From positions 1,476,558-1,540,557 of the forward strand of contig JAHRHZ010000094.1 in NCBI GenBank assembly GCA_024137785.1: a stretch of DNA of 64,000 bases, given 5' to 3'. The notes beneath the pieces were generated by a model. It saw only the letters and a program-made list of their open reading frames with translations. It did not search any database and was not told the origin of the DNA. This DNA is from Ginglymostoma cirratum. Taxonomy: Eukaryota. Shown piece by piece: positions 22,801 to 51,000 of this stretch; the first letter of the stretch is position 1, and the number at the start of each line of letters is the position of its first letter. The translations under genes were made by a program, and so were the position numbers.

Positions 22801-22967
22801 CAAGATTTGCTGAACTGTACATCCCTGTGACTTCTACAATCAGTTTCCAAATCTCATTAACAAAACGGTATGGTACAGAAACCCCTCCTGTGGTCTAAAC
22901 ATAGATTTTTGTCCGGATACCTTGTAATAGATGTTTTCGTAGAAGGATTCCTGTCTGGTGTTCAGGC

Positions 22968-22978
22968 TCAGCATCTCA
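22968..22978 (-). CDS. Gene A putative last coding exon (VRC-stop in the directly spliced frame)
   Basis: aaatttcag|TGAGATGCTGAGCCTGAACACCAGACAGGAATC is homologous to gene B 53994 onward; TGA conserved at the same position in both. Confidence 0.6.
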
Positions 22979-25900
22979 CTGAAATTTGCTGCATCAAGAA
23001 ATTGAAACATTTGGTTTACATCAATGTTTCTTCTGTCTCATTTAGTACATTATTGTTTAAAAATGCTTATTGATGTCAATGTTTCCTCACAGTTAAGTTT
23101 CAAAGCCGTGGTTTAATAGAATCATGGGATTGCAAAGAACATAAAAACATTTCCATCCTCCCCTTAGCAACATTCTAACCTTGTTACAGCCTTGGTTCAA
23201 GCATGGTCAAAAGATCTGAATTCCAGAGGTGAGGTGAGAGTGACAGTCCTTGACATCAAGGCCGCATTTACCAGAGTGTGACATTAAGGAGCTCTAGCAA
23301 AACTGGAATCTATGGAAATCAGGGGCAAACTCTCTGCTGGCTGGGACATAGGAAGATGGATGTGGTTGTTGGAGGTCAGTCATCTCAGCTCCAGGACATA
23401 TCTCTGCAGGAATTCTTAAGGGTAGTGTCTTCAGCTACCTCATCAATAACCTGCTATTATAAGTCAGAAGTGGGGATGTTTGCTGATGATTGCACAATGT
23501 TCAATACCCTCCATGACTTCCCAGATACAGAAGCCCTACATGTTCAAATGCAACAAGATCTGGACAGCATGCAGACATGGACTGACAAGTGGCAAGTGAC
23601 GTTTGTGAAACATATGACTGGCAGTGACTTCTTACTGGAGATAATCTAACTACCACTGCTTGTTCTATGACTGAATCCCCCACTATCAACATCCTTGGGG
23701 TTGCCATTGACCTGAAGCTGAACAGACTCTACCAGTACAGTGGCTACAAGAGCATGTCAGAGGCTAAGAATACTGCAGTGAGTAACTCAACACCTGACTC
23801 CCCAAAACATGTCCATGATTTACAAGGCACAAATGGGGAATGTGATAGAGTACACCCCGAATAATGCTCAAGAAGCTTGACACCATTCCAAGATAAAGCC
23901 AGCCCATTTGATCGGCACCAGATCCATAAGTATCCATCACTGACACTCAGTAGTGACAGTGTGTACTATCAACAAAATGCACTGCAGAAATTCACTAAAG
24001 ATCCTCAGACTGCACCTTCTAAAGCCAGGACCACTTTCATTCAGAAGGACAAGGGCAGCAGATACACGGAAATGCCATCATCTTTAAGTTCCCCTCCAAG
24101 CCAGTCACCATCCTGACTTGGAAGTGTATAGCCGTTCCTTCACTGTCACTGGGTCAAAATCCTGGAATCCTCACCCTAAGAGCATTGTGGGTGTACTTCC
24201 AGGACATGGATTGCAGTGGTTCAAGGAGGAAGCTCACTACTGTCTGTCTTAAGCAACAAGGGACAGACAATAAAAGCTGACCCAGCCAGTGAGGCCCACA
24301 TCCTGTGAGTGATTTTTTTTAAAATTGAGACTCTTTGTTGGCTTACAATGGCTCCAAGTTAAGCAGCATTATAATTTTACAATTCTTAACCTCATTTTAA
24401 ACCTTAACATTTTCCTGCCTCTTTTCATCTCTGTAAGCTCTCGTCCAATGGCCCACTGAAATATCTACTCTCCTTGAACTCTGGCCCCTTGAGCGTCTCT
24501 GAATTTAAGTGCTTCACCATTGATAATTGTACCATCAACTGCCGGATTTCTACATGTTCGTCCATCAAGATAATCCTTAAAATCTACCTCTTTGACCAGA
24601 ATTTTGGCCGTATGCTCTCAGCAACTTTCTTTATTGACAAGCCAGTTTTATCGTCACAGCTTAATAATAATTGTGGCTTGGTGTCGTATTTTGTTTTATA
24701 TAGCATAAAGCGTTTTATGATGTTTTGTTTGTCCTAAGTATCATAAAAATAAATCTTTGACTTGGTACGAGTTCTATTGATGGATATTCATGGTAACCAG
24801 TCCTGATTCTCCAATTTCTTTTCATCCTTCAAGTTTCCTTTTAAACCTCCTCTTAACCTGTGTTCATCACTCCCATGGGGCCGTGCATTACAAATCGTCA
24901 CAAGTCTTTGCATAAAATAAATGTTCTGTTCAGGTTATTGCTGATTCTTTTGCTTATCTTAAATCTATGCCGTCTCCTAATCAATCTTTCAGCAATTGGA
25001 AACAGTTTATCATTATTTACTCTCCCAACTCTTGTGATTTTAAACAGCTCTACCAAATAACCCTTTAGTCGCCTCAGCTGTAAGGAGAACAAGATGGACG
25101 ACACCTGTACTAAATAATGGTACCATTTCATCTGTGCATCAATTGTGATTAAACCAGTCTTACCAGTGTCAGTGCTGGAGGAAAAAGTGGCTTTCTTGTA
25201 GATGATTGTAACAGCAGCAATAATTAAAAGCAAACCACTGACAGCAGCCACAATGCACAGAGGAACCATTATCCTTGGGGATCCACTGGATATCCCTGTT
25301 TTTAATACATGGAGACAACAGAACTTTATTGAGCAAGGACAGAGTTATGATCAGAATTAAACAATTTCCTGATTCAGGAACAAAATGTGAAGTTTTAGGT
25401 GGAGTGACACCTGCCAATCAAAATTTATCTTCATGACATGCTACAGAAACACAGCAGGCCTGGACAGTGTGGAGCCATTAGCAATGGTAGCATTAGTAAC
25501 CCCTTTGTTTTTGGCTCTGAGCACTCACAATTTGTTCTACAGCATAAAACGAACTTTTCCAAGCCCTTTCACTCCTGGTGAACAGTCGGATCAGACTCAA
25601 AACTTTAACTCTGCTTTTGTCTCCACAACTGTTGCTGAATCTGCCAAACCCATGCTGCAATCCACCCCCATCACACAGACATCTCCCCCTCCCATTCACA
25701 CACCTGTATACACACATTACACCACATTCTCACACACTGCTGTGGACTTTACCTAGATCCTTAGTGACAGCTCTCTGCAGTGCCTGTCCCAGGGACACAT
25801 GTTTCACTTCACACCAGTAAGTACGTTTCTTTTCCCACTCTGTTGTTGGCACGGTCAATTGGGTCACTGTTCGGTAAGTACTCGTACTGCCCAAAGCCAC

Positions 25901-31900: not shown

Positions 31901-32894
31901 GGGTCTCGGCAATTAGCTCAGCAGCAGGTATCACCCTCGGCGCTAGGTAAATTCACAGACGGGGAGAAAGCCGATTCCGCAGCCACTAACAGAAACAGAG
32001 GGGCAGTGAGCGGCTGAGTCCCCCCACTGCCAACCTCTGCTCCCTGTCTGATGGCTATTCCTGAAGGGGGGGGAGGGAGGGTGGAAGAAAACAGCTTGTT
32101 GGAGTGAACCAGTTCAGCCTCGACCCCCCACCCCCCACCCCAAGCAATGAGGCTCCTACTTGGTGGTTTGGGGGAGAGCGCCTGTTAGCCTGGGCCAGCC
32201 TGGGACAGAGGTTCCTGAATCCCTCCTGGGTTCGAACAATAACCCTGCTTCGCTCTGCACTGGTCCTACTGAGCTTTTCCAGCTTTCCCTGCCTGTGTTG
32301 CTGATCTGAGGGTGGCACCGACCTGGTTTCACGTTGAGGGTCACCGCACAGCCGCACCAGTCTTTCGCGTTCACCACAACGTCCGCACTTTGACAGTAAA
32401 ACCTCGTGGAGTCCCCGCGTTTCACCTGCTCGATGGTTAAAGTGAATTCACTGTCATTGGCGGCGGAGAAACGGGGCTGAAACGCGGCCAGCCGGGTGAA
32501 GTTAGTCGATCCCGGGCTCAGGGACATGATCCATGTGATGGTGGAGTTGCCCGCTGGCACATAGCCCCAGGTTAGCGAGTGGTCATCCGGCTGCTGGCTG
32601 CTTCTACAGCCCAGTCTCACTGTCTCACCCTCCCGAGCATCCTGTACTGCCTGCAGAATGACCAGGTTGGAGTTGGAAAGGACTCCATCTGAACAGAGAG
32701 AGAGAGAGTCAGGGAAACTTACAAAGTGCTGAGGACAGAGACAGAACACTCAAGAGAGCTCAGAAACATAGAAATCTTGCGGTGTCTCTTTCTGATTTAC
32801 ACCATCCGCAGTTCTTTCCGTTTTTAGGGAGGGACCTTAGCTCCTTACCCATCTGCAAGGCCATCAGCAGCAAAGTCCAACACAGCCCTTGCAT
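22968..32894 (-). CDS. Gene A: non-rearranging antigen-receptor-like IgSF protein, L-V-C1-C1-C1-TM-short tail (~502 aa); exons 32894-32849, 32688-32323, 31548-31231, 28952-28638, 26073-25753, 25295-25164, 22978-22968
   Basis: All introns are GT-AG and phase 1, and internal exon lengths are multiples of 3 (366, 318, 315, 321, 132). No internal stops; canonical C-W-C Ig motifs in all four domains. Each exon except the second C1 has a homolog in gene B. Confidence 0.9.
23170..24315 (+). mobile_element. Decayed CR1/L2-group LINE (RT remnant) in the last intron of gene A
   Basis: LDIKAAF and MFADD..MQQDLD..QTWTDKWQVTF RT motifs with frameshifts. Confidence 0.8.
25164..25295 (-). CDS. Gene A transmembrane exon
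   Basis: ISSGSPRIMVPLCIVAAVSGLLLIIAAVTIIYKKATFSSSTDT; hydrophobic span + KK stop-transfer; aacag| and G|gtaaga. Confidence 0.88.
25753..26073 (-). CDS. Gene A C1-set exon 3 (membrane-proximal)
   Basis: VTMTCLVSDFYPADISVTW...EWEKKRTYWCEVKHVSL; tttgctgtag| acceptor, G|gtaaag donor; 321 nt. Confidence 0.93.
26630..27735 (+). mobile_element. CR1/HER1-type LINE 3' fragment
   Basis: WSPHYRKDVIVLERVQRRFTRMLPGLESLSYEKRL (ORF 27169..27357). Confidence 0.85.
28638..28952 (-). CDS. Gene A C1-set exon 2 (no counterpart found in gene B)
   Basis: PSIYMFPPTFEEI...ATIVCLAVGFYPKSILFSW...EWESGSLYTCQIQHVSL; Ig-heavy-constant-like; 315 nt, phase 1-1. Confidence 0.93.
30280..30735 (-). mobile_element. CR1/HER1-type LINE 3' fragment
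   Basis: FTRMLPGMEGSSYEERLRELGLFSLERRRMRGDLIEVYK (ORF 30372..30797). Confidence 0.88.
31231..31548 (-). CDS. Gene A C1-set exon 1
   Basis: PRPPSVRLL...KLVCVVSDFYPDTVSVSW...YTCLVSHKTL; 318 nt, phase 1-1. Confidence 0.93.
32323..32688 (-). CDS. Gene A V-set exon with built-in J-like segment
   Basis: GETVRLGC...LTWGYVPAG..TWIM...PRFS...FTLTIEQVKRGDSTRFYCQS...DWCGCAVTLNVKP; ctgttcag| acceptor, CAG|gtcggt donor. Confidence 0.92.
32849..32894 (-). CDS. Gene A leader exon (MQGLCWTLLLMALQM)
   Basis: Hydrophobic signal peptide ending G|gtaaggag; same donor and ALQx ending as the gene B leader. Confidence 0.85.
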
Positions 32895-33339
32895 TCTCAG
32901 CTGCCTTTACCCGGCTTTGATGTGCTCGGAAGCTCAACTGACTCTGAGAGCGAGGGACTTTTCAGCTCCTTCCTCATTTCTCACAGCGCAGCAAAGAAGG
33001 GACAGGCGTGAAGGGCTTGCTCCAAATTTATCTCTTCAATTCAGCTCAAACACAACGGTCAGCCCTTCCCTGTACTGTAAACCAAAAATGCTGGAAATCG
33101 CAGCATCCGTAAAGAGAGAGAGAGCAAGCCACTCGAAACATTAGCTTGCTCTCTCTGCATGGACGCTGCCTGACCTGTTGTGATCTCCAGCTTTTGTTGT
33201 TTACAGTACAGCTTCCAGCATCTGCAGGAATTTACGCCTACATTGTGTTCTGTCCTCCCCTAGGACCCAGTTCCAGTGTACCGTCCAAACAGACTTCAGA
33301 GCAAGTGCTGCACTCTTGCTAAGTTCAAGAAAGCTCTGA

Positions 33340-34740
33340 CAAGTCCGTCTGCAAAAACCAAATTGCCTGCCCTTTTAACAGCCCACCGTGTTCCCTGGCC
33401 AACATCTCTGTCTCAGGCTTGCTGCAGTGATCCAGCGAAGCACAGCACAAGCTGGAAGAACAGCATCTCAATTTCTTCTTGGGGACCCTGCAACCTTCTG
33501 GACTCAATATCGAGTTTTCAGGCTTGAGCTCTCCCATGTCCTTTTCCCAACCCCCACAAACCAGGCTTGTTAACACAAGGTCTGCTATTACACACAACCC
33601 ATTGTTAGCCACTAACACTCCCCATTAACAGCCATCACCAGACACATATCCTCATTCGAGTTATTTATATGAATGACAAACCACAGACACACATTCCCCT
33701 CCCCTCCCTTGTCCACCTTCCACAGGGACCATTCCCCCCAGGACACCCAGGTCCACACTCCCTTCAACCCCAACACCTCCCCACAGCCCTACGGCACCTT
33801 CCCCTGTCGCTGGTGAAGGTGCAACACCTGCCCATTTACCTCCTCCCTCCCCAGTATCCAAGGGCCTAAACATACCTTCCAGGTGAAGCAACATTTCACC
33901 TGCACTTCCCAGAATCTAATCTACTGCATTCATTGCTCACGATGTGGTCTCCTCTACACTGGGGAAACGAAGCATAGACTTGGCGACCGCTTCGCAGAAC
34001 ATCTACGTTCTGCTCACAAAAAAGACCCTGAACTAGCTGTTGCCTGCCACTTCAATGCACCTCCCTGCTCCCTGGTCAACATGTCTGACTCTGGCTTGCT
34101 ACAGTGCTCCAGTGAAGCCCAACGCAAGCTGGAGGAACAACACCTCATTTTCTGCTTGGGGACTCTACAGCCCTCCGGACTCAATATTAAGTTCAATAAT
34201 TTTACGGCCTAAACTCTCCCATGTCCCAGCCCCCCACCCCACACACCAGGCCTTGTTACCACATAGCCTGCCACTATACACCCCCTGTTGTTAGTCACTA
34301 ACAGTCCCCATTAACAACTATTCAGCCTCCCAGCCCGATTGTTAGCAACTCCTTTGTCCGTCCAACTGTCTTTCTCTCTCTTTGGGCTCTATCCTATCGT
34401 TTACTCCCTACCCCACCCACCTCCCTATTTTCTGCATATAAACTGATGTATTCCCAGCCGCCAACAGTTCTGAGGAAGGGTCACCGGACCAGAATCGTTA
34501 ACTCTGTTTTATCCTTCACAGATGCTGCCAGACCTGCTGAGATTTTCCAGCAACCTTGTTTTTGTCCCCATTAATAGCTATTCACCCACCCTGCCTGATC
34601 GTTATCCACTCCTTTGTCTATCCCCACCTATTGTTCACTCCCTCACCCTATCTTCTGCATAAAAACCAATAGCTGAGTTCTCTTCACAGATGCTGCCAGA
34701 CCTGCTGAACTTTTCCAGCAACTTCTGTTTTTGTTTGTAA
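33340..34740 (+). mobile_element. Penelope-like retroelement 3' fragments (tandem), including a GIY-YIG endonuclease remnant
   Basis: ORF 33883..34212 FTCTSQNLIYCIHCSRCGLLYTGETKHRLGDRFAEH is GIY-YIG-like. There is a partial duplicate at ~33340-33650, repeated gatgctgccagacctgctga termini and a degenerate hammerhead core at 34466-34503. Confidence 0.85.
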
Positions 34741-35034
34741 GTTTTGACAGGTTGGTTTCACAGATGCGCTTGTGAGACACCACAATGGCTATTGAGTCAG
34801 TACGGCAGTAGGGAGGTGGTGATTTTTCTCCGGATGTGTGTAGAAGTTGTAGTGCAGCTGTAGATGGAGAAGAAGCTTAGAGATCAGGAATGGGAGAGAG
34901 ATATGCATGGGACCTTATTATGGATAAAGAAGGATGATGTGCCGCATTGGTATTGGGTTCTTTGGTTCGTCATTTATGTAAACAACTCGAACAAGAATAT
35001 AGGAGGCATAGAATCAGCATGGACAAGGCCATTT

Positions 35035-36098
35035 AGAGTCATAGAGCTGTACAGCATGGAAACAGACCCTTTGGTCCAACTCGTCCATACCGACCAGATA
35101 TCCTAAATGAATCTAGTCCTATTTACCAGCAATTGACCCATATCCCTCCATGCCCTACCCATTCATATACCCATCCAGATGCCTTTTAAATGTTGTAACT
35201 GTACCAGCCTCCACCACTTCCTCTGGCAGCTCATTGCCTACACGCACTAGCCTCTGTGTGAAGTTAACCCCTCAGGTTCTTTTTAAATCTTTCCCCTCCC
35301 ACCTTAAACCAATCTCCTCTAGTTTTGGACTCCCCTACCCTGGGGAAAAAACCTTGACTATTCACCCTATCCATGCCCGTCAATATTTTATAAACTTCTA
35401 GAAGGTAACCCCTCAGCATCTGTCACTCCAGGGAAAATAGCCTCAGCCTATTCAGCCTCTTCCTATAGCTCAAACCCTCCAACCCTGGCAACCCCATTTC
35501 TGATGAAGGGTCTAGGCCCGAAACGTCAAGCTTTCCTGCTCCTATGATGCTGCTTGGCCTGCTGTGTTCATCCAGCCCCACACCTTGTTATCATTGTAAA
35601 TCTTCTCTGAACTGTTTCAAGTTTCACAACATCCTTCCTATTGCAGGGAGACCAGAATTGCATGCAATATTCCAAAAGTGTCCTAACCAATGTCCTGTAA
35701 AGCCACAACATAACCTCCCAACTCCTCTACTCAGTGCATCAACCAATAAAGGCAAGCCTACCAAACACCTTCTTCACCATCTTGTCTACATAGGACTCCA
35801 CTTTTAAGAAAGTATGAACCTGCACTCCAAAGTCTCTTTGTTTAGCAACACTCTCCAGGACCTTACCATTAAGCAGATACGTTCTGCCCTGATTTGCCTT
35901 TCCAAAACGTAGCATCTCACCTTTATCTAAATTAAACTCCATCTGCCGCACCTCAGCCCATTGGCCCATCTGATCAAGGTCCCATTGTACTCTGAGGTAA
36001 CCTTCTTCACTGTCCACTACACAATTTTGCCGTCTTCTGAAGGCTTACTAACCACACCTCCTATCTTCACACCCCAATAGTTTATATAAATGATGAAA
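35035..36098 (-). mobile_element. CR1/HER1-type LINE 3' fragment with nested Penelope-derived insert (~35495-35595)
   Basis: QWDLDQMGQWAEVRQMEFNLDK (ORF 35739..36017); agtcatagag-type tail. Confidence 0.85.
35497..35530 (+). ncRNA. Minimal hammerhead ribozyme motif in a short Penelope-derived insert
   Basis: ttt-CTGATGA-A-GGGT-ctag-GCCC-GAAA-CG-TC-aag. Confidence 0.65.
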
Positions 36099-37522
36099 AC
36101 CCCTAGGATGTACATATTTGATACACTCTAACCACCTGCTCTAATATTACCTCATGTGGCTGGATGTCAACATTTATTTTCTAATGTTATTGTGAAACAT
36201 TTTGAGGTGTTTTTATTATGTTATTGATACTATACATATTTAAAGTGTTCTTTTGCTAGATTGCACGCAATCTAATTAAAAATTGACTTGTACAAAATTG
36301 CAGGCTTGTAGTAGGGAAACAAACATAGGTTTTGTTAAAGCAGTTGTGATCATTCAATCATTCAAATAATTAAGGTATCAGTTTGATATCAGTTTGGCCA
36401 ATTTCTCACAGTTTCTATAATACTTAATGAACTTATTTCTGATACATACCTAATAAATGAATCCATACACTTCTAAAAGCATTGGAATAATATGGACTAC
36501 ATAAAACAGAAAACTGTACAACGATTGCAAAACATTTCCAGAATCTGACACATGTGTTCGAGAAGTAGCTTAGTACAGTGAGGTACAATTTCCGGTAATT
36601 CATCTATCACTTGTAGTTAGTGAGATGTTTTGCTAGTTTGGATAAACGTTCCTGAATTTAAAAAGAAGAATATTTGACTGCAGTATCCAATTGCTTCTTA
36701 GATTGTTCCAAAACTCTCTCAGGAACTCAGTGTTTTACTGATGGCTCCAAGTGTGGAACTTCTCAGACTAAGTCCTATGGCAGAATCTTCCTGAATGATG
36801 TGGGCAATTGTCCCATGTACCCTACAGAAACTAAACCGCAGCAGTTACTGAGCAGGAATTCTGAGCTGTTAGCTGGTGACTGCTAGCTCCCTGGCTCCTC
36901 AGGCCTGCTGAGCCCGGGCAATGGGGGCATGTCGCAGCCTCAATGCAGAATCATGGCACATCTCTGACCCACTTACTATATGGCAGTGCACTTCAGTGCT
37001 GCATTTTGGAGCACACTGGCATCTTTGGGGCCAGGCCACTGTGGGTGGGAGCAAGGTGGGGGGGTGGTGGGCACTCACCTCATGGAATAAACTAGGGAGC
37101 ATCTCAGGTCTCATCCCCCCACTCTGTTAGTGCTTCATCACTTTGTGCCTTCTATGATGCTCACAGTGTCTCTGCCTTGCCTTGCCAGTATACATTCTGT
37201 CCCCACAGTCAGAGCTTGAAGGCTCATGCCTTTCCTTTGTGAGCACACGCAAAATCAGGCAGTTCAAGTACTAGCCATGTTGCTGTTCCGTCAATCTCAC
37301 ACCCACAGATGATCATGTTCTGAAGCTTGAGGGGGGTGGTCCTTATTTAACCCCCTGTCAGGGTTTTCCAGCACAGGGCCAGTGTCCAATATCAGACCAG
37401 GGGCATGGCCATGGTCAGACACCCACTAGTGTGGTCAGTATTAGTGGGTCCATTATCACTACTGTCTGGGAAGTGGGGCACGGTTAGTCCAGAAAGTCCA
37501 GTACAACCAATCTGTGGAAAAA

Positions 37523-37906
37523 TGGAGATCAGTCAGGGATCTTCAGTGAGATCAGTCAGGGATCTTCATGGGGTTCAGTCAGAGATCTTCACGGAGATCA
37601 GTCAGGGATCTTCACGGAGATCAGTCAGGGATCTTCACGGAGATCAGTCAGAGATCTTCAGTGAGATCAGTCAGAGGTCTTCATGGAGATCAGTCAGAGA
37701 TCTTCACGGAGATCAGTCAGGGATCTTCACGGGGTTCAGTCAGAGATATTCATGGAGATCAGTCAGGGATCTTCACGGAGATCAGTCAGAGATCTTCAGT
37801 GAGATCAGTCAGAGATCTTCACGGAGATCAGTCAGGGATCTTCTGGAAGATCAGTCAGGGACCTTCATGGAGATCAGTCAGAGATCTTCACGGAGATCAG
37901 TCAGGG
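37523..37906. repeat. Minisatellite, 23-bp unit GAGATCAGTCAG(G/A)GATCTTCA(CG/GT/TG), ~16-17 copies
   Basis: Directly visible tandem array; explains the repetitive ORFs 37405..37923 and 37568..37966. Confidence 0.95.
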
Positions 37907-39035
37907 GCCTGTTCACCCATTAATTGGGGCTGTTTGCCTGAGTCAGTCAGGGTTAGGTCACTGTGAGTCATGCCCGGGGATTGAATGCAGCATGCTGGGG
38001 CGCAGAGGGGAGCAGGCAATGTGAGGATGTGATGGAGACTGTAGACCGAGGAGAGCAACAGTGGTCTTCTGAGGAGGAGGGAGGAGGACATTGAGCAGGA
38101 GGGACAGCACCTTTAGCAGGACAGAGTGATGCAGCATTGCAGGCAATGAGCCAGCAATGGGCTGCACTGCCAGTCGATGTGAGCTGGGTGCAGTCATTAC
38201 TCACTGATTGGAAGTTGTTAATGCTTGAAAGGCAGACAGACCCTGTCTGTGTGGAGGCCTGTGTTGGTTTTGGTTTTCTTGCCTTTTGCTGTTGCTGAGC
38301 ATTTATTCACCATTTGAAGGCTTTCCATTGAACAGTGAGAAGATGTGATAAGAGACTGACATTTGGGACATTTGCTGCCTTCCCAGTGTGTGCCTCGTGT
38401 TTGGTTGATCCTGGGTGGCAACGGCTTGGCTTGGAACACAACTGGGTTCCATAAATGGATCCAATGCAGGAAATTGCAGAAGGTGCTGGCAGTGGCGATA
38501 CTTCCAGCAGTGGTGAGCTGGCAGTGCCACAGGATGGGTACCATGGAGAGGTGGTACAGACACAGTGCCAAAGGTTTGATGAAGTCGAGTGAGGAAACTC
38601 GCAACAGCTGGAGGGAAACATCCCTGAAATTGATGCTGGAGCCGATTTCTGGTTCCTAGTTTCGTCGTTAGTGAGCCTTTCGCTTCCCGAACATTTACAA
38701 CAAACAAAAGTGCTGGTGAAACTCAGCAGATTTGGCAGAGCTTTATTTAGCTTTGTTTCCTCAATGACATCCCGGGAGGAAGGGAGGGGCTGGGGCTCCT
38801 TGCGAAAGCCGAGAAGCTTACATTTGAGAAGATTACACTGACCAACAGTAAACACAGCGTGACCGCAAGAACTTTTGCTCTTTCTCAGTGAGAAGTTTGG
38901 AGAATAGCATCCCCTTCGTAACCACCTCCCTTTAAGTGCTCATCAACCAAAGAGGAATTACAAAATCCATTCTTCAGCCGAACAGAACTCAATTGTGAAT
39001 CTTGAAAGCTCTTGAGCAGAGAAACCGAGCCGAAA

Positions 39036-39072
39036 ATGTTCTGCATCTTTGTTCTGACAGCCCTGCAGTTGG
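39036..39072 (+). CDS. Gene B leader exon (MFCIFVLTALQL)
   Basis: Short hydrophobic leader, G|gtaaggag donor, 91-nt intron to the V exon. Confidence 0.82.
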
Positions 39073-42000
39073 GTAAGGAGCTAATTCCTTGGTGTGGGTT
39101 TATCTTCATTCACACTGCCTCTGTTGTGGTTCACTTGGTGATTTTCTGTCTCTTCCATTTCAGATCCAGTTGTACCCCACACTTCTCTGTCGATGCCTTC
39201 GGCTACTGTCCTCAGGCAGGAGAAAGGATCAGTGACACTCGAGTGTTTCAGCTCTAATAAGAAATTCCTTATGAAGTGGGGATACGTGACTCCCGGCTCT
39301 TCAGAAACCAAGTGGCTCATGTACTGGAACCCGGGAGAAAAAACGGCGACTCGAATGCCAGGGATCGAGCCTCGTTTCTCTCAATCCAGTAGCAGCAAAT
39401 ATGGTCTAAGAATCGACGCCTTGAGACTGGAGGACTCGGCCACATATTACTGTCAGAGTGGGGAGGAAGGAGATGACTGGTGTGCCTGTGGAACCACACT
39501 GAAGGTGAAAGCAAGTAAGTGAAGGAGAATATTGAAGCAGATCAGAGCATTTACTCTGGCTGTGAAGTGGAAAAAGAAGTGTGTAACTTTCTCCCAAAAT
39601 AACTAGGAGAAATGGTATAAAGATTGTTAGAGGTGGATCCATTGACAAACATCTTATTTACAGGTAGTAATTGAGATGGTTAATATTGGTCACTGCATCA
39701 GTCTCAGTTATTTCACCTTACTGTGATAGCTGAGGTCTTCCCAACATGTTGGATGTTGTTTATAGATATTTTCCAAATCAACCTGCTCAGAGATGTTATT
39801 ATACACTGCTGGAGCAGGTGGGACATGAACCCAGGCCTCCTAGTCCAGAGGTGGAGACATTACCACTGCACCACAAGAGCCTTTGGGGGCAGTTTATATG
39901 GAACAAGGTGAATAACACAAACCTGGTGCTGACAGAACTTGAAAAAGCCAGTTTGGTTAAACTGATGTGGATGTCACACAACTCAGAAACAGACCCTTCG
40001 GTCCAACCAGTCCATGCTGACCATAATCCCAAACTAAACTAGTCCCACCTGCCTGCTCCTGGCCCATGTCCATCCAAACCTTTCCTATCTATATACTTAT
40101 CCAAATGTCTTTTAAAGGCTGTAACTGTACCCACACCCACCACTTCCTCTGGAAGTTCATTCCACATGGGAACCACTCTCTGTGTAAAAAAAATTGCCCC
40201 TCATGTCTTTTTAAAATGTCTCTCCCCTCACCTTGAAAATGTGCCCCCCCACCCCCTGTCTTGAAAACCCCCATCCTAGGGAAAAGACAACGACTGATAG
40301 ATTCTCCAGCATCTGCAGTACCTTTTATCTCTTATGACTGATAGCATTTCCCAGCTATAGATGGAGCAGGTCAGCATCTCTGGGGTAGAAGGAGACCATT
40401 CAATCTATTGTGTCTATGCCAGCACTCCAAGTGATCATTTCACTTAGTCCCGTTCCCCTACCTTGTCCAAGTGAACCTGAACGTTGCTCCTTTTCAAGTA
40501 ATTGTCTAATTCCCCTTCAACAGCCTCAGTTAAATCCTGTCTTCACCAGTGCATTCCAGGTCCTAAGCACTCACTAGGTGAGAAAAGTTTTTCCTCATGT
40601 CTTATTTTAGCAATTTACTTTAAACATGAGCCCTTTCATTCTCAAGCCTTTCATGAATGGGAACGCTTTCTCCCTATTTATTCTGTCTGACCCTCACATT
40701 ATTTTGAACAATTCAGTCAGATCTCCTGTCAGACTTCTCCTTCTTGAAGGGGAACAGTCCCAGTTTCTCCAATCTATCTCCATAACTGAAATTCCTCAGG
40801 CCTGGACCCACTCTTGTAAATCTTTGCATTCTTTCCAATGGCTTCACCATCCTTCCTGAAGTACAGCACTAGGTACTAGGCACAATGTTCCAGCTAAGCC
40901 GAGCTAAGTGTCTTGTATTAGCTCACTATGACCTCTTTGATCTTACAAGCTTTGCCCCTGTTAATAAGGTTTAGGGTATTCTAACCTGTCCTGCAATCTT
41001 TAATGACTAATGCACAGATACACTTACGTCCCTCACTCCTGCACCTACTTTAAACACGCATCTTTTATTTTGTGATTTTGTGTTCTTCTGACCAAAATGT
41101 ATGGCCTCGCCTCTCCCCACTTAACTCTGTCTGTCGTCTTTCCAGCTGCCCTGTTGAACTGCATTTGCGCAGTTTACAATGCTGCCTTGTTTTTGTATTG
41201 TTTGTATGTTTTGAAACTTGTGCCAAGGTCTAGAAAGCTAAGCTAATATTTGGAAAAACAAGGGGTGCACCACTGCCCCTCAGAGAACTGAACTGCAAAT
41301 CCTCCCCTGGAAAGCCTTCATTAATCATTACTTTCTCTTTGCTGTCTCTCGACCACCTTTGCCTCTATGTTACGGCTGCCCCTTTAATTCCACGTGTTCT
41401 AGTTTGGCTCCCACGTCTTTTGTGTGGCACTTAAATATTTTCTGGAAGTCTGTGTCAGATCAACAGCCTTTGTTACATCATCTAAAACCTCCAGTAAGTT
41501 CAATAAAAATGACTTTCCCTTATGTAACCTGTGCTGGTTCTCCTATATTGTCCACGTGACTGCTGATTACATTCTGAAATATTGCCTCAAGAAATTTCCC
41601 AACTACAGATGTTAAACTAACCAATCTGTGATTAGTTGGTCTATCTTTACACTCTGTTTTGAACAAGTGCAGAACATTTGCAATTCCTCAGTCCTCCGCC
41701 ACCATCTTTCTGTGTCCAAGGGGAAACTATTGCCAGTGTCTCTGTAATTTCTGCTCTCTCGTCCCTCATTATACTTACAGTCATAGAGTCATAGAGCTGT
41801 ACAGCTCAGAAACGGACCCTTCTGTCCAACTCGTCTATGCCGACCAGATATCCTAAATGAATCTAATCCCATTTGCCAGCATTTAGCCCATATCCCTCTA
41901 AACCTTTCCTCTTCATTTACCCATCCAGATGCCTTTTACATGTATTAATTGTAGCAGGCTCCACCACTTCATCTGGTAGCTCATTCCATACACACACCAG

Positions 42001-45000
42001 CCTCTGCATGATAAAGTTAACTCCTCAGGTCCTTTCTAAATCTTTCCCCTCTCAGCTTAAACCTATACCCCTCTAGTTTTGGATTCCTCCACCCAAGGGA
42101 AAAGACTTTGTCTATTCACCTTATCCATGCCCCTCATGATTTTAGAAACCTCTATAAAGTCACCCCTCAGCCTCCGACACCCCAGGGAAAATAGCCGCAG
42201 CCCATTTTGGATGCAACTTATGCAAAACCCTCATGGGTTATGAGGTGGGTGGGGGCGTTATGGGTTAGAATAGCGTGCATCAAGGGATGTGGCGATTGTT
42301 AGGATGTGTAGATTGGCATCGGGTACGAGGGATTATGGGGGTGAGTACAGAGGCATGGGGTATGAGCGATTATGAGGGTGAGTACAGAGACATGGGGCAT
42401 GAGGGATTTTGGGGGTAAGTACAGAGTCATGGGTGTATTTGAGGCTATAAAGGGCCATGGCGATGAGGTTACGAAGGGTTTTGAGGTGTGGATACGGGAG
42501 CGTTGGTTGGTACAGAGGGACATGGGGATGTGGGTAGGATGAAGGAGGGACAAGGGCTGGAGGCCTGTTTTTTAGTGTTCTTGCATCTGTCCCGATGAGT
42601 AAAAGTTGAGAATCTTTGACAGTTAGTCATTTTTTTCTTGTAATACTTAAGTCCTGAATGCCCAATGAATATGATAAAAATTAATTGCCTTTTCCCCTTG
42701 TAATTCCAGCCATTTTGCCAAGACCACCGTCCGTGCATCTCCATTATGTACTTCCTGAGAAAGATTTCCAGCAGACGGATAGCTCGCTGCTTTGTGTGTC
42801 AAGAGATTTTTACCCGGAGAATATATCGGTGTCTTGGTATGAGGGGGGCAGAGAGATATTCTCAGGCATCACACACTTACGTAGACTGGTGGATTCAAAT
42901 GACCGTTACACTGTGATCAGTAAATTGACAATTTCAACATCTCAGTGGCTCAGCGGTTCTCGTTACTCTTGTATTATTTCACATGAAGCCTTGCCTTCTC
43001 CACTCATCAGAACAATCAGTAAAAATGGTATGTCCATGTTTCCAGATCCTTTGTAGAACCATTATTGATTGCTGGCTTCTGATTAATTCTAACCACTTTA
43101 ACAGAACTTAGCCAGTGTGCCTACCACCACCATTGGTGTAGGGTTGTCACTGTATGTTTGAATGTTTCTTAATGCAATCTCTCAGACATCCAAAGTACAA
43201 AACGGTCCTAATTTAGATAATGTAATTTCACGCAAGTATCCAAACTTCAACAGTCTTGAAAAGGAGGAAGGATGATGGGGGTTAATACATTCCCAGAATT
43301 TAGTAGATGACCCCAACTAATCAAACTGATTGATTGAAAGTTTATCTCTTTCCAGAAATACCCTTTATCTCCTTTTGACTTTTACTCACTTGAATTACTT
43401 TTTGTGATAGCTTAAAATATTTCTCAGTTCTTTTATGCTTTTGGTTGAAAAGGTTTTGCATGACTTCCCTTCTTCATAACTTGTGTTCCCTAATAATTCT
43501 TAATGGCTCTTCAGCATCTACAACATTTGAAGTTGGTCACTGGAAAGTTGCTTTTATTTGTTCCTAATGTGTGGGTGTTACCGGGAAGGTCAATATTTGT
43601 TGCCATTTCTAGCTGTCCTTGAGATGGTAATGATGAATTGCATTTTTACATGGTTGTAGTCAATATAGTGTGGATGCAGCCACAGTGTTATAAAGAAGAG
43701 AGCTCCAGGTTTTTGACCAAGTGACAATGAAGGGATGGTGATATAGTTTCAAGTCAGGTTGGTGTGTGGTTCAGAGGGAATTGGTAGGCAGTGGTGTTCC
43801 CAAGCATCCACTGCTATTGTCCTTTTAGGGAATGTCAGTGATAGGGTTGAGGGCAAGTGGGAGTTAATGACAAAAGGATACATAATGTAAACAGCCAAAG
43901 GGAGTAGAAAATAGGATAAATAAAGATAATCTCTCCTGTTTTACACCCTATCAGACACCTTCCCTTTTGTTCCATTTCCCACACCCCACCAACTGCACTT
44001 ACTTTAAATTCATTGTACATTTCCAAAATCTCTCAAATCTGTTAAAATTCCCATCAAGCTAAACATTCACTCTATTTCTCTCTCCAAGGTGCTGCAAGAC
44101 CTGTTGAGAATCTCTAGTGTTTTATATTTTCATTTCAGAAATTGATTATCTTTTTTAGACCAATTTTGTGCATCAGGTATTCTAGGGACGAGTTCTGTAG
44201 AATCTCCATTGTGTGGCAAATACAACATAAGTTGTGTGAATTGAATTATCTCTTACTGATATACCGAGTCATACAGCACGGAGCTCTTCGGTCTAACCAG
44301 CCCATGCCAAACATAATTCCAATCTGAACTAGTCCCATATGCCTGATCTTGGCCCATGTCCCTTCAAACCTTTCTTATCCATGTACTTTTCTAAATATCT
44401 TTTAAATGTTGTAACAGTGCCCACATCTGCCATTTCCTCCAAATGTTCGCTCCACTCATGAACAACCCTCTGTGTAAAAAATTTGCCGCCATGTCTTTTT
44501 TAAATCTCTCTCCTCTCACCTTAAAAATATGACCCCTAGTCTTGAAATCGCCCACCCTAGGGAAAAGACAACAATTTTTAACCCTATCTAAACTCCACAT
44601 GATTTTATAAACCTCTATAGGATACCCTCAAGCTTCTACGCTCCATTGAGAAAAGTCCCAACCTATTCAACCCCTCCTTATAACTCAAACCCTCCATTCC
44701 GGTCAACATCTTGGTAAATCTTTTCTGAACCCTCTCCAGCTTAATAATATCCTTCCTATAACTGGGCGACCAAAACTGGACACAGTATTCCAGAAGTGAC
44801 CTCACCAATGTCCTGTACAACCTCAATGTAACCTCCCAACCCCTATATAAGTTAAAACATTAATATAGTGTTCAAACTTTAAGGTATACCTGATTAGTTA
44901 TCTATGTTAAACATTGCTTTTATCTTTTTTATTATAAAATGATTTTAAGGAACATTGGGGTCAAATGTCCATTAAAAGTCCAGTTTTGGTTATGGTTTTC

Positions 45001-48000
45001 TCAACAAAACCTGAGGAGGTTGTTTTTAGCTGTCCTGTTATATTACAAAGTGAATACATCACACAACAGACCTGGAGTTCAAAGTGAAGTGCTGTTTTCC
45101 AATTCTCAGTGAAGGAGTAAAAATGAACCAACTTATTCCACAATTCTTACCTATACCTCAAGTGAATCTCCATTTGGAAGTTATTGATAAACATTTGTTC
45201 TGAAGTTGTTATTAGTTCCAATACTTGACATTATTTCAGCTCCAATCATCAAGATCTATCTTATTAAAATACTGGACCATTGAGGTGTGGATTGAATTAC
45301 TGGAGAGCTCTTCCTCAGTCAAAAAGAGACCACTGTTGGTTTGGTTGAGTTGTGGAAATATAGACCACCGGATCATTACTGTGGTTTGTTCTTAGTGCTG
45401 AATACAACTGATATTTACCCCTTTGTACTTCACATGCTTGTCTCAAACCAGCGCCTCCCCCAGGTTGCAGTGAGCATTGCTGTGGGGAAACATGATTTGT
45501 GTTACCTTAAATATGTCAAGTAATATATTGACAGGACCATCAGATAGCTTCCCCATAATTTTAGATTTATGTATAAAATGACCAAAACATTAAGACCAAA
45601 ATAATCTTATAATTACATGACTAGCTATATGTTGATATACTCTTAAGTTATTTTATTTTTAAAATACAGCAACATTTTTATAGAGTCATACAGTCATAGA
45701 GCCATACAGCACGGAAACAGACCTTTCGGTCCAACCATACCGGCTATAATCCCAAACTAAACAAATCCCAGCTGCCTGCTCCTGGACCGTATCCCTCCAA
45801 ACCTTTCCTATTCATGTACCTATCCAAATGTCTTTTAAATGTTGTAACTGTACCCACATCAACCCCCTTCCTCAGGAAGTTCATTCCACACACAAACCAC
45901 TCTCTTCGTGGAAGGTTTGCCCCTTATGTCTTTTTAAAATTTCTCTCCTTTGTTTCAATATTTTTCATTTCAGATACTCAGCTCACATCTATGTGCTATA
46001 TAAATCTTAGAATAATATAGAGCAAGAGTTCCATGCAAAACATTTCTAATTATTTTCTCAATTAATAGTTAGGACGCTGTTGGAAGATTATTTCTTGTGT
46101 TTGAGATTAGTCTGAAATATTGACAAAAGAAATTGCTATTCTGTCAAATAGTGAAAAATGAGCTGTTAGGGATTATAACAATGTCATCTATTAGTACATT
46201 GACTTCAATTCAAGTAAATTTTAATAGCATCAGAATTACGGAGGTTTTATCATTTATCATTTGGAAGTTAGAAGTAAGAGCTGAAAAACATTTTACGGTT
46301 ACTTTTTCTCAAATCCGTACCAGTAAGTTTTCATCTTCCTCAATGTTTTATACAGAATAAGGGAAGTCAATGACTGTGTCTTGGTAAGAAGAGAATGAGC
46401 TAAAGGTCTTGCCTCTTTCCATTTTATCTCCCCTGCTTAATTTCTAATTCACCAATGAGGTTAAAACTACAAAGTCTATTTACCAGACATAGTCTAAGCT
46501 TCTGTAGTGGTGCTCACCATCTTATACTGAGTCCGCGATGGTAATCTTTAGCAGTTTATAAATCATTGAATGTTTTGCTGCTGTTAGAGTAATCAGCAGG
46601 TACCAGATTGGCGCAAAGTTTCACTTTGGAAGTACAGTTCCAAACTCCATAGTTCTATCACAGTTCTGAGTGTTTAATTGATTTTGCTGTTATAAGTTAT
46701 TGATTATATTTTACAAAGAAAATCACTGCTCTCTGCCTTCACTTAACAAATTCAAAACGTATTTGGTCAGGTGCATGTGATAAAGCATTCATTGAATCTT
46801 TGGTCTAATGATCTGTTCCTGTCTTTTCTGTAGATGGTTTCATTCAGAAGCCTGTGATCCACCTGATCGCTCCTCTGTCTGATGCTGCCTCTGCAGGGCA
46901 AAACGTTACTATGACTTGCTTGGTGTCAGACTTTTACCCTGCTGATATTTCTGTGACTTGGAGAGATGAGAATGGCCCAGTGGATACGGGAGTGACCCAG
47001 TTTGCAGTGGCTTTGGGCAGTACCAGTACTTACCGAACAGTGAGTCAGTTGACCGTGCCAACAACAGAGTGGGAGAGTAACCATACTTACTGGTGTGAAG
47101 TGAAACATGTGTCCCTGGGACAGGCACTGCAGAGAGCTGTCACTAAGGATCTGCACAACGTCTACATTGGTGAGCTGGTGTGCAGGTGCTTTGGAAGGTG
47201 CCGAGGGCTCAGTGAATGTGGTATGCATGTGGATGGGTGTTTGCAGGGGTGTACGTGGAGAGTGTGGAAGAGCGTACGTGTGGAATTGTGCTCCATGAGT
47301 CTCAGTCAGATGTGGTTTTGTGGAAGGGAGTTGTTTTTTCATCTATGGTTAGACTGTCAGTTTGGTGCTTTTGATGTGTGGGTGAGTTGCTGGGGTTATT
47401 GTGTGGTATGCAAGTGCGTACACACTGGTTTATGTTTGTGAGGGCTTACACAGTGTTTGTCAGTAACCTCTTGACACTATCCCGAAGAACATTCTGACCA
47501 TGTGCAGAGATCCATGGTTTCAGAGGTAGCATTTTTCTGAGGTGTAGACTGTTAAACCTGAAAACAAGCTGCACAGCAGAACATCCATGGCACCATTTTT
47601 GCTTTGAATTGCATTCATTTACATGCAGAAACGTTTACAAGTGAATTGTGATGGGCAGAGACCCAGTGCCAATGGATCAGCACTGAATTAAGAACTGTGC
47701 AAAGTGTGGGAAATCTGCTTCCTTATTCTGAACACCGTAGATTTCCAGCATTGACTGATTGCTCAAGGTGAGGTTAAGGTGCACATGCAGCACGCCAACC
47801 AAAGAAAAACTTATTTCTAAATAGGAATACATATTCCATTGGCAGATTCTCCCAATTCTTCAACGATGGATGTTCACTGTCTTGATTAGTGTTAACTCAC
47901 AAGTGATGTTAAACTATATTTTGTTTTGAGATCTGATTGAAAAACAATGTTATGAGTGAAATCACTGTTGGAAGGGAAGGTGAAGCAGCATTGTACAACA

Positions 48001-51000
48001 TCCACACTGGGACCTGACTCGCACGCCACATGTTGAGATTTCCTGCTGATGGTAACTTCTTCCTGTGGCTGTTTACTTTTGTCCCAACATACTGAGCTCC
48101 AAATTACATGCTCTGATGTTGGCTTTCAGAATGGGTTTGTATATAAGTCTGCAAAGTTCCATGATGTGAGTTCAAAACTGGAATTTGGGGCTGCACATTG
48201 GTTCAGTGATTAGCACTGCTGCCTCACAGCACCAGGGACAATGTTTGAGATCATAGATAGGTATCATCATAGAATCCCTACAGTGTGGAAGCAGGCCATC
48301 CGTCCAATCGAGTCCATACCAACCCTCTAAAGAGCATCCCAACCAGACTCACTCCCTGCACTATCCCTGCAACCCCTTATTTACCATGGCCACTCCATCC
48401 TAACCTGCATGTTGTTAGACAGTGGAAGGAAACCAGAGCTCCTGAAGGAAATCCAGGCTGACATGGAGAGAATGTGCAAACTCCACACAGACAGTTTCCT
48501 GAGAGTGGAATTGAATCCAGGTCCCTGGTGCTGTGAGGCAGCAGTGCTAACCACTGAGCCATTGTACTGCCCAAATTCCACAGTTTTGAACAAATGAAAC
48601 AAAACTTTACTATCTAAATTATGACACTAAAACTATACATAGATATTTACCTTATAATCTACAATCCAGATTTAACATGAGGTATGCAGACAAACACCTG
48701 TTAAATATCCCAAAGACCACATCAAGTAGCCAATGTTGTCATGGCAGCAATCAAGATGGCAACAGGACTTCTCAGCAATTGCTTCCCACCCCTCTATCAG
48801 ATGTTAGTACAACCGTAGATCTCCATAGAATCACATTAAAAACCTGTTTCCTTTACAAATGGTTTCAATTCTTGACATTGGAGGTCCTAACTTTGAAGCT
48901 CTTTCTAAAATTACCCTGTTAGATACTGCCCACATAACTCCTGATGTCCTAACCATTCAATCCCTTCTCCTACATTTCACCACGTTCTCAAGGTCACACT
49001 CTGGAATCTGCTCGTGAGTATAATTCTAACTCTTTTGCAGGCAGTTACGTTGACTAAGCTGAAACAACCCTTTGTTTATCTGAGCTCCAATCATTCTCAA
49101 CTGTATCAAGCTTGACCTGTTTGTCTGCTGCCTTCAGCCTAACTCTCAGCTACACTGAATTATCAATGGTCTTCAGCTTGCTTCTGAGTCCCAACTGTTC
49201 TGGATAGCAGCCAGGATCTCTCCTCCTAAGATCTAACTCCAAATATTAGCTCTGCTTATTGGCTCCCTGGAGCCCTAACTGCTGGAATTTGCCACAGCAG
49301 CACCTTTTTAATATGGAACCCCTTTCCCAGCTTGGCAAGAAACTGAGAGATAAGCAGGCTGAAGGTAGAAGTCTTCTGCTTTGATCTCCTCTGACCAAGC
49401 AAATGAACCTGACTGTTCAATGACCTTTCAGTTGTGTCAAACGACCAATTGAAAATATTGCAACAAGACCTTGATCCTAGGCAGGATCAAATATACTAAC
49501 TGTTGGAACATCACATTGAATGTAACAATTAGAACATCCTTTATCTACGTTGTAATTTTCACCAAACCTATTCTTCACTGCTGTCACCTTCAGAACATAG
49601 GCATAGACACAAAAAAATGGGTTTTATTTCATAAACCCCATGGCGAACATGTCTGAAACTGAGCTGTGGTGAATAGGCTCTGGATGTAAGACATTTGGAG
49701 CTTTGTTGTTGGGGATTTTGTCCTTCCACTTGCAGGGAGACCTTAGACAATAAATAGCTTTGATATTGAAGTGCCGCTGTTGGACTGGGGTGGACAAAGT
49801 CAGAAGCTGCACAACACCAGATAATAGTCCAACAGGTTTATTTGAAATTACAAGCTTTTGGGATGCTGCTTTTTCATCAGGTGACGCTCTGAAAGCTTGT
49901 AATTTCAAATAAATCTGTTAGACAATACCTGGTGTCAGGTGACTTCTGAGTAAATTGTTTTGTGCAATTTGGGTAGGGTAGCCCACCTCCCAAGTGATGC
50001 GAGAATCATTGCCTAGATCATGTTAATATCTCAAAAAGCTGTGGGTGAGCCTGTCCAAATGTTTGTCTCATTGAAAGTGATTCGTTGGAGAGAATGTTAC
50101 TACATTTGCAGGCCTTCTGAACTGAATTGAGGGTGCGTTGTTGTTTATAATGATAGGCTTGTATAGTGGCCAGAGGTGGGTTGGTGCAAAGTATTTGTCT
50201 TTTTCAGAAGAGTTATCAGCCGATTGGGGTTCCAAGGCTTGGGTATAGTTGTTAACAAGAATCTGGCTTCTTCTGGAGCGTGCTATCCACTATGTGTGCT
50301 TACTTACAGGAACACAGGAGTTCATTTTACATCTGATAGAAGTCTACAAAATTACAAAATTATGAGGGGCATAGATAGGGTTGACAGTCAGAATGTTTTT
50401 CCCAGAGTTGAAATGTCTACATCTAGAGGCCATGCATTTAAGGTGAGAGGAGGAAAGTTCAAAGGAGATGTGAGGGGTAGGTTTTTTTACACAGAGAGTC
50501 TGGAATGCTCTGCCAGGGGTTGTGGTGGAGGCAGATACAGTAGGGGCATTTAAGGGGCTTTTAGATAACCACATGAATATGCAAGGAACAGAGTGATATG
50601 AACCACGGACAGGCAGAAGGGATTAGTTTAATTTGGCATCATGTTCGGCACTGCATCGTGGGCCAAAGGGTCCATTCCTGTGCTGTACTGTTCTACGTTC
50701 TATCTGTTCAGTGACCTTTGTAAGTGCCTTGAACCTTTGCAGATTGAAGAAGTTGCCATCCGTTCTGAACTGAGAATGTGAGGATCGGAGATGTAAGAAA
50801 GGCCAAAATGAGGCGGGCAGACAGAATTGGAGCTATCACACATCTTTCTTGGTGGCGTTGGTGACAGGAAAGACATCTGATAAGGCACCGTTCTGCACCA
50901 CACCAGCCTTTGTGCCATCATGAAAGATCTCTGCACTACTCCTCATTCCTCTGTCATGATTCACTAATGATCCACTGTCTCCTTTATCTGTAATTAGTGA

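Follow-up and report, generated by a model that had tools for sequence, protein, structure and literature searches.

The window (the whole 64,000-nucleotide stretch of Ginglymostoma cirratum contig JAHRHZ010000094.1 that was analysed) contains two intact, divergently oriented genes: gene A on the minus strand, and gene B on the plus strand. Gene A consists of a leader exon (32849–32894; a split leader in phase 1, with the ATG at 32894), a single VJ exon with a CxC motif in the G strand (32323–32688), three C exons, a predicted transmembrane exon without a charged residue (25164–25295), and a cytoplasmic exon, predicted by homology, with the tyrosine motif S-F-Y-E-N-I-Y-Y-K (22840–22988). C1 (31231–31548) and C2 (28638–28952) encode C1-set domains, the best relative of the latter in the same genome being UrIg C2 (44%). 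The third C exon, C3 (25753–26073), shares 96% nucleotide identity with its counterpart in gene B.

Gene B follows the order leader-VJ-C1-C3-TM. It comprises a leader exon (39036–39072; transcript contigs extend upstream to 38827), a single VJ exon, again with a G-strand CxC (39164–39514; unchanged and spliced in two contig sets), a C1 exon (42710–43027), a C3-type exon joined straight to C1 by splicing, with no C2 (46834–47169), a predicted transmembrane exon (50998–51132), and a predicted last exon homologous to that of gene A (53994–54004), which reads G-R-H-stop in phase 1 and hence would give a three-residue tail. The C exons of the two genes total five within 464 kb; the split leaders, and the encoding of one C1-set domain per exon, are as in the UrIg family. 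The start codons are separated by a 6.1 kb spacer (32895–39035) containing a 23-bp tandem array (37524–37906) as well as interspersed repeats; at this distance, a shared bidirectional promoter is unsupported.

The original prediction held that each V domain continues without a break from strand A, through a short CDR3-like loop, into the G strand and a phase-1 donor. The exons agree: both V reading frames are open across strands A to G, positions 32323 and 39514 are the exact last bases of the V exons of A and B, and each exon is followed by a phase-1 GT donor. Both V domains score above the Pfam V-set cut-off. The non-canonical J motif is also as predicted: C-x-C-G/A occurs where F/W-G-x-G is canonical, with the G-strand cysteines replacing the glycine motif.

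An RSS scan of 22–55 kb, as proposed with the original prediction, was run using a CAC heptamer, a 12/23 spacer (±1) and a nonamer. With the counts from 30 first-order simulations in brackets, the scan returned 0 (0.13) sites with ≤2 mismatches, 1 (0.67) with 3, 7 (3.9) with 4, and 34 (20.1) with 5. The surplus of 4–5-mismatch sites falls away from the V exons, at which the best site has 5 mismatches. The scan finds sites at ≤2 mismatches in 5/5 rearranging V loci of the same genome, and sites below 5 mismatches in 0/5 joined-V loci (UrIg included). Across 464 kb, where 1.4 sites with 2 mismatches were expected, a single one was found; it lies 56 kb before the window. Over the same 464 kb, no additional Ig exons were found among ORFs of at least 100 aa, and no J motifs beyond those of A and B themselves (using a pattern that fired in 6/10 control loci). 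The claims that neither V is flanked by an RSS, and that there are no extra V or J segments, are borne out. The label 'germline-joined' is a misnomer, there being no sign of a RAG-mediated join.

Database comparisons place the V domains close to UrIg2 (Flajnik et al. 2025, PMC12227049; PDB 9dmx), which is the top PDB sequence match of V-A (E 1e-15), lies at rank 1–2 in a Foldseek search with the V-A model, and, at E 9e-15, ranks behind only four multi-V antibody constructs among the matches of V-B. In a first alignment, in which some Ig/TCR rows were over-trimmed (the rows were repaired for the final tree), the V domains of A and B are 31–40% identical to those of UrIg and UrIg2 (36–39% to the UrIg V on contig C5; 31–39% to six UrIg2 rows that are 44–85% identical among themselves), and 18–29% identical to nine Ig/TCR V rows, the low similarity to Ig that had been noted at the outset. 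The V tree sets the 19 rows of the UrIg family, A and B among them, against the nine Ig/TCR rows (only two of them TCR V) with support 94/92 (95/93 in the first tree). Its topology is (UrIg,(UrIg2,(A,B))), with support of 92/90 for UrIg, 99/96 for UrIg2+A+B, and 84/82 for A+B.

These results bear on the possibility that A and B are Ig or TCR genes with a RAG-derived germline join, now too divergent to be recognised easily. Germline-joined Ig genes do exist in the same genome (L026, L028, L030), a split leader and C1-set exons are common to Ig, and the V fold is antibody-V-like; germline-joined shark IgL and IgH clusters also resemble A and B in that V and J share one exon with no RSS. However, those clusters retain F/W-G-x-G and group with rearranging V, while A and B show neither: the canonical pattern matched in 3/4 joined Ig V controls and in neither A nor B, and AU tests reject the grouping of A+B with VH (p=0.004) and with germline-joined IgL (p=0.015). 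The low identity to the Ig/TCR rows, and the lack of any other C1-set match on the 11.9-Mb contig C94 (150 of 248 candidates scored), likewise count against a RAG-derived origin, which we regard as very unlikely.

Within the UrIg family, whose traits include expression in liver or gill instead of lymphocytes and linkage to the MHC or the Ig/TCR complex, A and B resemble both known members. Like UrIg (UrIg / tsIgH; PMC12227049, PMC10331284), gene A has a VJ-C1-C2-C3 layout, a single V exon and a non-canonical J motif, and its C2 and C3 are related to UrIg C2 and C3. Unlike A and B, UrIg is secreted only and MHC-linked, with one G-strand cysteine and a V that is 71–100% conserved; the V identities given above, where about 80% would be expected of a UrIg orthologue, and the transmembrane exons indicate that A and B are not its orthologues. 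With UrIg2, A and B share single-exon VJ, a split leader, C1-set domains in apparently the same order, two G-strand cysteines, a transmembrane form and, probably, C-exon gene conversion, and the two form sister clades in the V tree. They differ from UrIg2 in the number of C domains (three in A and two in B, versus 9–11 in shark UrIg2), in forming a divergent gene pair with a predicted tyrosine tail in A, and in lying beside matrin-type and CYP26-type genes rather than Ig/TCR genes.

Could A and B simply be translocated, diverged UrIg2 copies of G. cirratum, and hence already-known genes? Their sister position to UrIg2 and their transmembrane exons fit this reading, as do the described plasticity of UrIg2 (with several copies in stingray) and the finding of no other UrIg2 in the G. 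cirratum assembly. Yet orthologues of UrIg2 would be expected to show V identities of about 50–60% across elasmobranchs, well above those observed; shark and ray UrIg2 form a clade (100/99) with A and B outside; and joining A+B to the UrIg2 of sharks alone is rejected by an AU test (p=0.03). Furthermore, A and B lack the repeated C2/C3 units of UrIg2, and Table S1 of the UrIg2 paper places UrIg2 elsewhere. Finally, separate UrIg2 records exist beside A or B in three species (S. canicula, S. torazame and R. typus), two of these records carrying the name UrIg2 in PMC12227049. That A and B are UrIg2 copies is thus very unlikely.

In the C tree, in which the pattern missed some domains so that the labels are shifted, the C1 domains of A and B cluster with those of UrIg and UrIg2 (92/80), and C3 of A/B joins UrIg C3 (98/92); the C2 group is weak (52/80), with UrIg2 C3 outside the set and gene B contributing no C2. 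The C3 domains of A and B from the window are sisters (98/89). The 96% identity of the two C3 exons is likely the result of gene conversion.

Orthologues of A and B occur in five other sharks, with intact VJ domains within annotated proteins. Gene A is 77% identical to chiPu_0010575 across 489 aa, and gene B 65% identical to XP_038651300.1 across 391 aa. In two species the genes carry adjacent locus tags on one contig (chiPu_0010574/5 and scyTo_0006167/8).

The ITIM consensus is (S/I/V/L)xYxx(I/V/L). The predicted gene A tail motif fits it, as does that of the catshark gene A model (S-V-Y-Q-N-V-Y-Y-K), whose tail matches that of gene A at 60% (E 3e-11), and the gene A motif also fits YxN; the tail of the Chiloscyllium gene A model differs from the ITIM-like motif. 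From its predicted sequence, gene A would likely signal through this cytoplasmic tyrosine motif, of which none was seen in the three UrIg2 tails examined. Gene B has likely lost the motif: at its predicted last exon neither the acceptor upstream nor the bases for Y-E-N are present, and gene B models elsewhere end in GGL (3/6 cluster members), GRL (Mustelus) or another short tail. Neither predicted transmembrane segment contains a charged residue, the mark of an activating partner.

Spliced contigs of gene B, taken to be RNA-derived, were found in two sets of sequencing data, X1 (leader-V-C1) and X6 (leader-V-C1-C3), each matching the germline without a differing letter or a gap; none of the listed runs with matches to A or B is on record as RNA. 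The germline V is unchanged in these contigs, at a read depth (about 2–3x) too shallow for rare junctional or AID-type variants. Depth on the A/B exons is nil in X15 and only about 2–5x in X14. Together with the UrIg-family grouping, the AU tests and the intact shark orthologues, the unchanged V supports the original proposal of an anciently unsplit, invariant V. That A and B were never split is something we infer, as it is for UrIg itself, since a join older than about 300–450 million years would leave no testable trace.

X1 and X6 each contain another C3 contig that differs at 9 letters, which is the number of A-versus-B differences there. Each of the two runs has both A-type and B-type C3 contigs, at depths (a poor gauge of expression) of 60.8 vs 60.2 in X1 and 11.4 vs 29.1 in X6. 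The near-equal X1 depths are among the points suggesting that A and B may be two chains of one invariant heterodimer, one long and signalling, the other short and tail-less, joined through the G-strand cysteines and homogenised C3. The genes are adjacent in three sharks, both keep CxC, their C3 exons are near-identical, and their tails are complementary. However, with four Ig domains in A against three in B, the V-V, C1-C1 and C3-C3 pairs could not line up simultaneously; the two genes start far apart; the X6 depths are unequal; UrIg and UrIg2 are both reported as homodimers (PMC12227049); and inverted repeats undergo conversion without selection. A prediction of the V-A + V-B complex (score 0.12, mark 0.34), made without alignments or folded controls, is evidence neither way. 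We think a heterodimer rather unlikely.

The neighbours of A and B are matrin-type and CYP26-type genes, which we take to be MATR3 and CYP26; they are not MHC or Ig/TCR genes. The naming is backed by Pfam zf-U1/zf-met and p450 matches, a CYP120 PDB match and paralogue patterns, while atlas and PDB searches gave the matrin-type gene no name. The human sister segment of the matrin/CYP26 paralogon, on 2p, also bears CD8 and Ig kappa. A Pfam scan of 252 of the 258 non-repeat flank ORFs of at least 88 aa (omitting six long tandem-repeat ORFs, and of a kind that short exons escape) gave two matches: a retro-element endonuclease and a P450 exon. On contig C94, no proteasome match was found among 24 matches and no SLC23-family match was found, leaving synteny with human 5q31 unconfirmed. 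UrIg of G. cirratum sits on contig C5.

We conclude that A and B probably represent a third, undescribed, non-rearranging UrIg lineage: a predicted pair of invariant surface receptors, in which A likely signals and B likely serves as a tail-less partner or decoy. No description of these genes was found in the literature searched, from which the original 2023 UrIg paper was out of reach. Duplication out of the UrIg2 line may have given rise to the A/B ancestor before sharks and rays diverged; an inverted tandem duplication would have followed before carpet sharks and ground sharks parted, after which gene B presumably lost C2 and the tyrosine tail, and C3 of A and B were probably homogenised by gene conversion. 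By analogy with the UrIg2 crystal, each chain may form a dimer, disulfide-linked through its G-strand cysteines and held by Fc-like pairing of C3, and bind a fixed ligand; the gene A tail is predicted to recruit an SH2 protein. NKp30 and CD8 are not known to have C1 domains. As described, they and PRARP resemble A and B in having a VJ domain without rearrangement in a membrane protein (other single-exon VJ genes, covered in part by PMC10751288).

The gene that the RAG transposon split to give rise to antibodies and T-cell receptors has long been sought, and among living genes UrIg and UrIg2 are the foremost candidates (PMC12227049). A and B would double the known UrIg family and, relative to the literature searched, add several features new to it: (i) a conserved gene pair, (ii) a predicted tyrosine-signalling tail, (iii) a three-domain chain, and (iv) a site apparently apart from both the Ig/TCR complex and the MHC. 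The last would imply that the family moved at least once, which tempers arguments from synteny. It is unlikely that A and B are a living, RAG-free, two-chain antigen-receptor-like heterodimer, head to head in the matrin/CYP26 paralogon outside the MHC and the Ig/TCR complex; were they a heterodimer, the VJ-C1 family would be shown to pair chains and signal at the membrane without rearrangement, and the synteny case for a proto-MHC-only origin would be loosened. As membrane-bound, expressible proteins, A and B offer a means of probing the ligand and the cross-chain pairing of an unsplit VJ-C1 receptor.

A six-frame scan of the window revealed two V-type and five C1-type exons. These form two divergently oriented genes, free of stop codons, whose exons have AG/GT borders and are joined in phase 1 throughout. 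Gene A (minus strand) comprises leader, VJ, C1, C2, C3 and transmembrane (TM) exons (499 aa up to the TM end), and gene B (plus strand) leader, VJ, C1, C3-type and TM exons (392 aa). Their start codons lie 6,142 bases apart, with a 23-bp tandem array (16.7 copies; window 37524–37906) between the genes. Identity is 36% between the two V domains (V-A and V-B) and 51% between the C1 domains, but the C3 exons share 96% DNA identity over 349 bases. A catshark tail used as a query matched a homologous last exon in both genes. The last exon of A is predicted from the genomic sequence to read S-F-Y-E-N-I-Y-Y-K; that of B is predicted to read G-R-H-stop, and the acceptor upstream of it is absent, as are ten bases, the tyrosine codon among them.

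Each gene was originally noted to carry a single, uninterrupted VJ exon (within 32323..39514), without recombination signal sequences (RSSs) or additional V or J segments. Positions 32323 and 39514 are indeed V-exon ends, and the remainder of the observation also held. The best RSS-like site at either V has five mismatches, and a scan of 22–55 kb returned no site with two or fewer; sites at this threshold were recovered in five of five rearranging V loci from the same genome (positive control). Weaker RSS-like sites in 22–55 kb modestly exceed simulation (four mismatches, 7 vs. 3.9; five mismatches, 34 vs. 20). Across 464 kb (the window plus 200 kb on either side) there is a single two-mismatch site, matching chance expectation; the same region contains no other Ig exon ORF of at least 100 aa, and its J motifs are the two genes' own alone. 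A and B are real, non-rearranging genes of the UrIg kind.

V-B is present, whole or in part, in nine runs (complete in seven). Four runs were compared with window 38700–48400, spanning the leader to C3 of B. Contigs from run X1 (leader-V-C1) and run X6 (leader-V-C1-C3) join the exons of B at the predicted borders, with no other letters and no gaps, in contigs that lose rare variants and with a raw-read depth of ~2–3x over V. These joins show that gene B is transcribed and spliced, with C2 skipped. X1 and X6 each contain a second C3 contig with nine other letters over 46994–47113, equal to the number of A/B differences in that interval; this contig is likely gene A, the alternative being a converted allele of B. 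Expression is demonstrated for B and likely for A. At window 46988, in the shared C3, the gene-A base is found in all X1 contig depth and in 8/9 reads from run X14, which suggests that A–B conversion is polymorphic between individuals. In a C-domain tree (42 rows), C1 groups by gene (A, 100/99; B, 99/95), while the C3 domains of the window's A and B are sisters (98/89). This pattern is the signature of gene conversion.

Orthologues of both genes exist in other sharks, annotated as 'kappa light chain-like' or hypothetical. For A, these are Chiloscyllium punctatum chiPu_0010575 (identical architecture, 77%) and Scyliorhinus torazame scyTo_0006168 (partial); for B, C. punctatum chiPu_0010574, S. 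torazame scyTo_0006167, S. canicula XP_038651300.1, Mustelus asterias XP_078087760.1 and whale shark g36146. Complete B models read V-C-C-TM plus a short tail. The A and B locus tags are adjacent in two species, on equal-sized contigs. Three of these species (S. canicula, S. torazame and whale shark) have UrIg2 records as well. Of 1,586 profile hits, the top 150 included no A/B gene from a ray or chimaera; most of these rows are multi-domain proteins, and clustering at 50% conceals members. Two further records concern the known families: Hypanus sabinus model P0012 has UrIg fused to an upstream RING/B-box gene (probably a gene-model artefact), and Heptranchias perlo P0033 is UrIg2-like, with extra C domains ahead of the repeated units, and is absent from the accessions given in the UrIg2 paper.

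In the window, a matrin-type zinc-finger gene (2102–10331, plus strand) ends at ~10.3 kb; another is found 160 kb away, outside the window (G000:C94:1326226–1326357; finger 70% identical). The two are likely MATR3 and its tandem duplicate. The last exon of a P450 gene, 19 kb beyond the window (L005:9280–9651, minus strand; G000:C94:1559837–1560208), has three closely related counterparts in the genome, giving four exons in all (C94, C249 and two in tandem on C139). The exon is presumably CYP26-like, suggesting a fourth CYP26 paralogue; mammals have three CYP26 genes. On C94 (11.9 Mb), the C1-set matches are this pair's five exons only, among 150 scored, and proteasome genes gave no match there; C221 carries Ig C exons adjoining a proteasome gene. 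UrIg (L003/L024) is at G000:C5:344261–352299, its V protein identical to whale shark and nurse shark sequences. Assembly G000 gave no match of high identity to UrIg2 of whale shark and so appears to lack UrIg2. In catshark, B maps to a sequence of 244 Mb, UrIg2 to a scaffold of 5.2 Mb. These placements are compatible with chromosome-scale linkage. Elsewhere, L028:1441–1857 (minus strand; C130) is a germline-joined IgH VDJ exon in which a cysteine directly precedes W-G-R-G, with no RSS close by; L064:2504–3559 (plus strand) is a single 352-aa ORF, possibly transposon-derived, resembling unnamed arthropod/chordate clusters (Atlas 0.91–0.93, low recognition); and L014:2070–3716 (plus strand) is a serine-rich 549-aa ORF that matched nothing in Pfam and is probably a large exon of some neighbouring gene.

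A and B are most likely two invariant membrane receptors, each chain of which would dimerise in the manner of UrIg2. A bolder proposal, that A and B form a heterodimer, sits poorly with their different domain numbers. As two separate receptors, A may signal through the single tyrosine motif of its predicted tail, which we assign to the ITIM-like/YxN consensus and which is conserved in one catshark model; B, without a tail or a charged TM residue, would act as a decoy or co-receptor. We give this division into signalling and decoy roles an even chance.

No third UrIg locus is described in the accessible portions of PMC12227049, PMC10331284, PMC10751288, PMC12926255 and PMC12156248, and literature searches gave no description of one; the original UrIg paper, the PRARP paper, Ohta 2019 or supplements may mention A/B. 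A V tree (28 rows) separates the UrIg family from Ig/TCR (94/92) and, within it, supports (UrIg2,A,B) (99/96), a shark and ray UrIg2 clade (100/99) and A+B (84/82). Placement of A+B with VH is rejected by AU testing (p=0.004), as is its placement with germline-joined IgL (p=0.015) or shark-only UrIg2 (p=0.03). A and B very probably constitute a separate non-rearranging UrIg lineage and, because the last placement is rejected, the sequences weakly suggest that this lineage split off before sharks and rays diverged.
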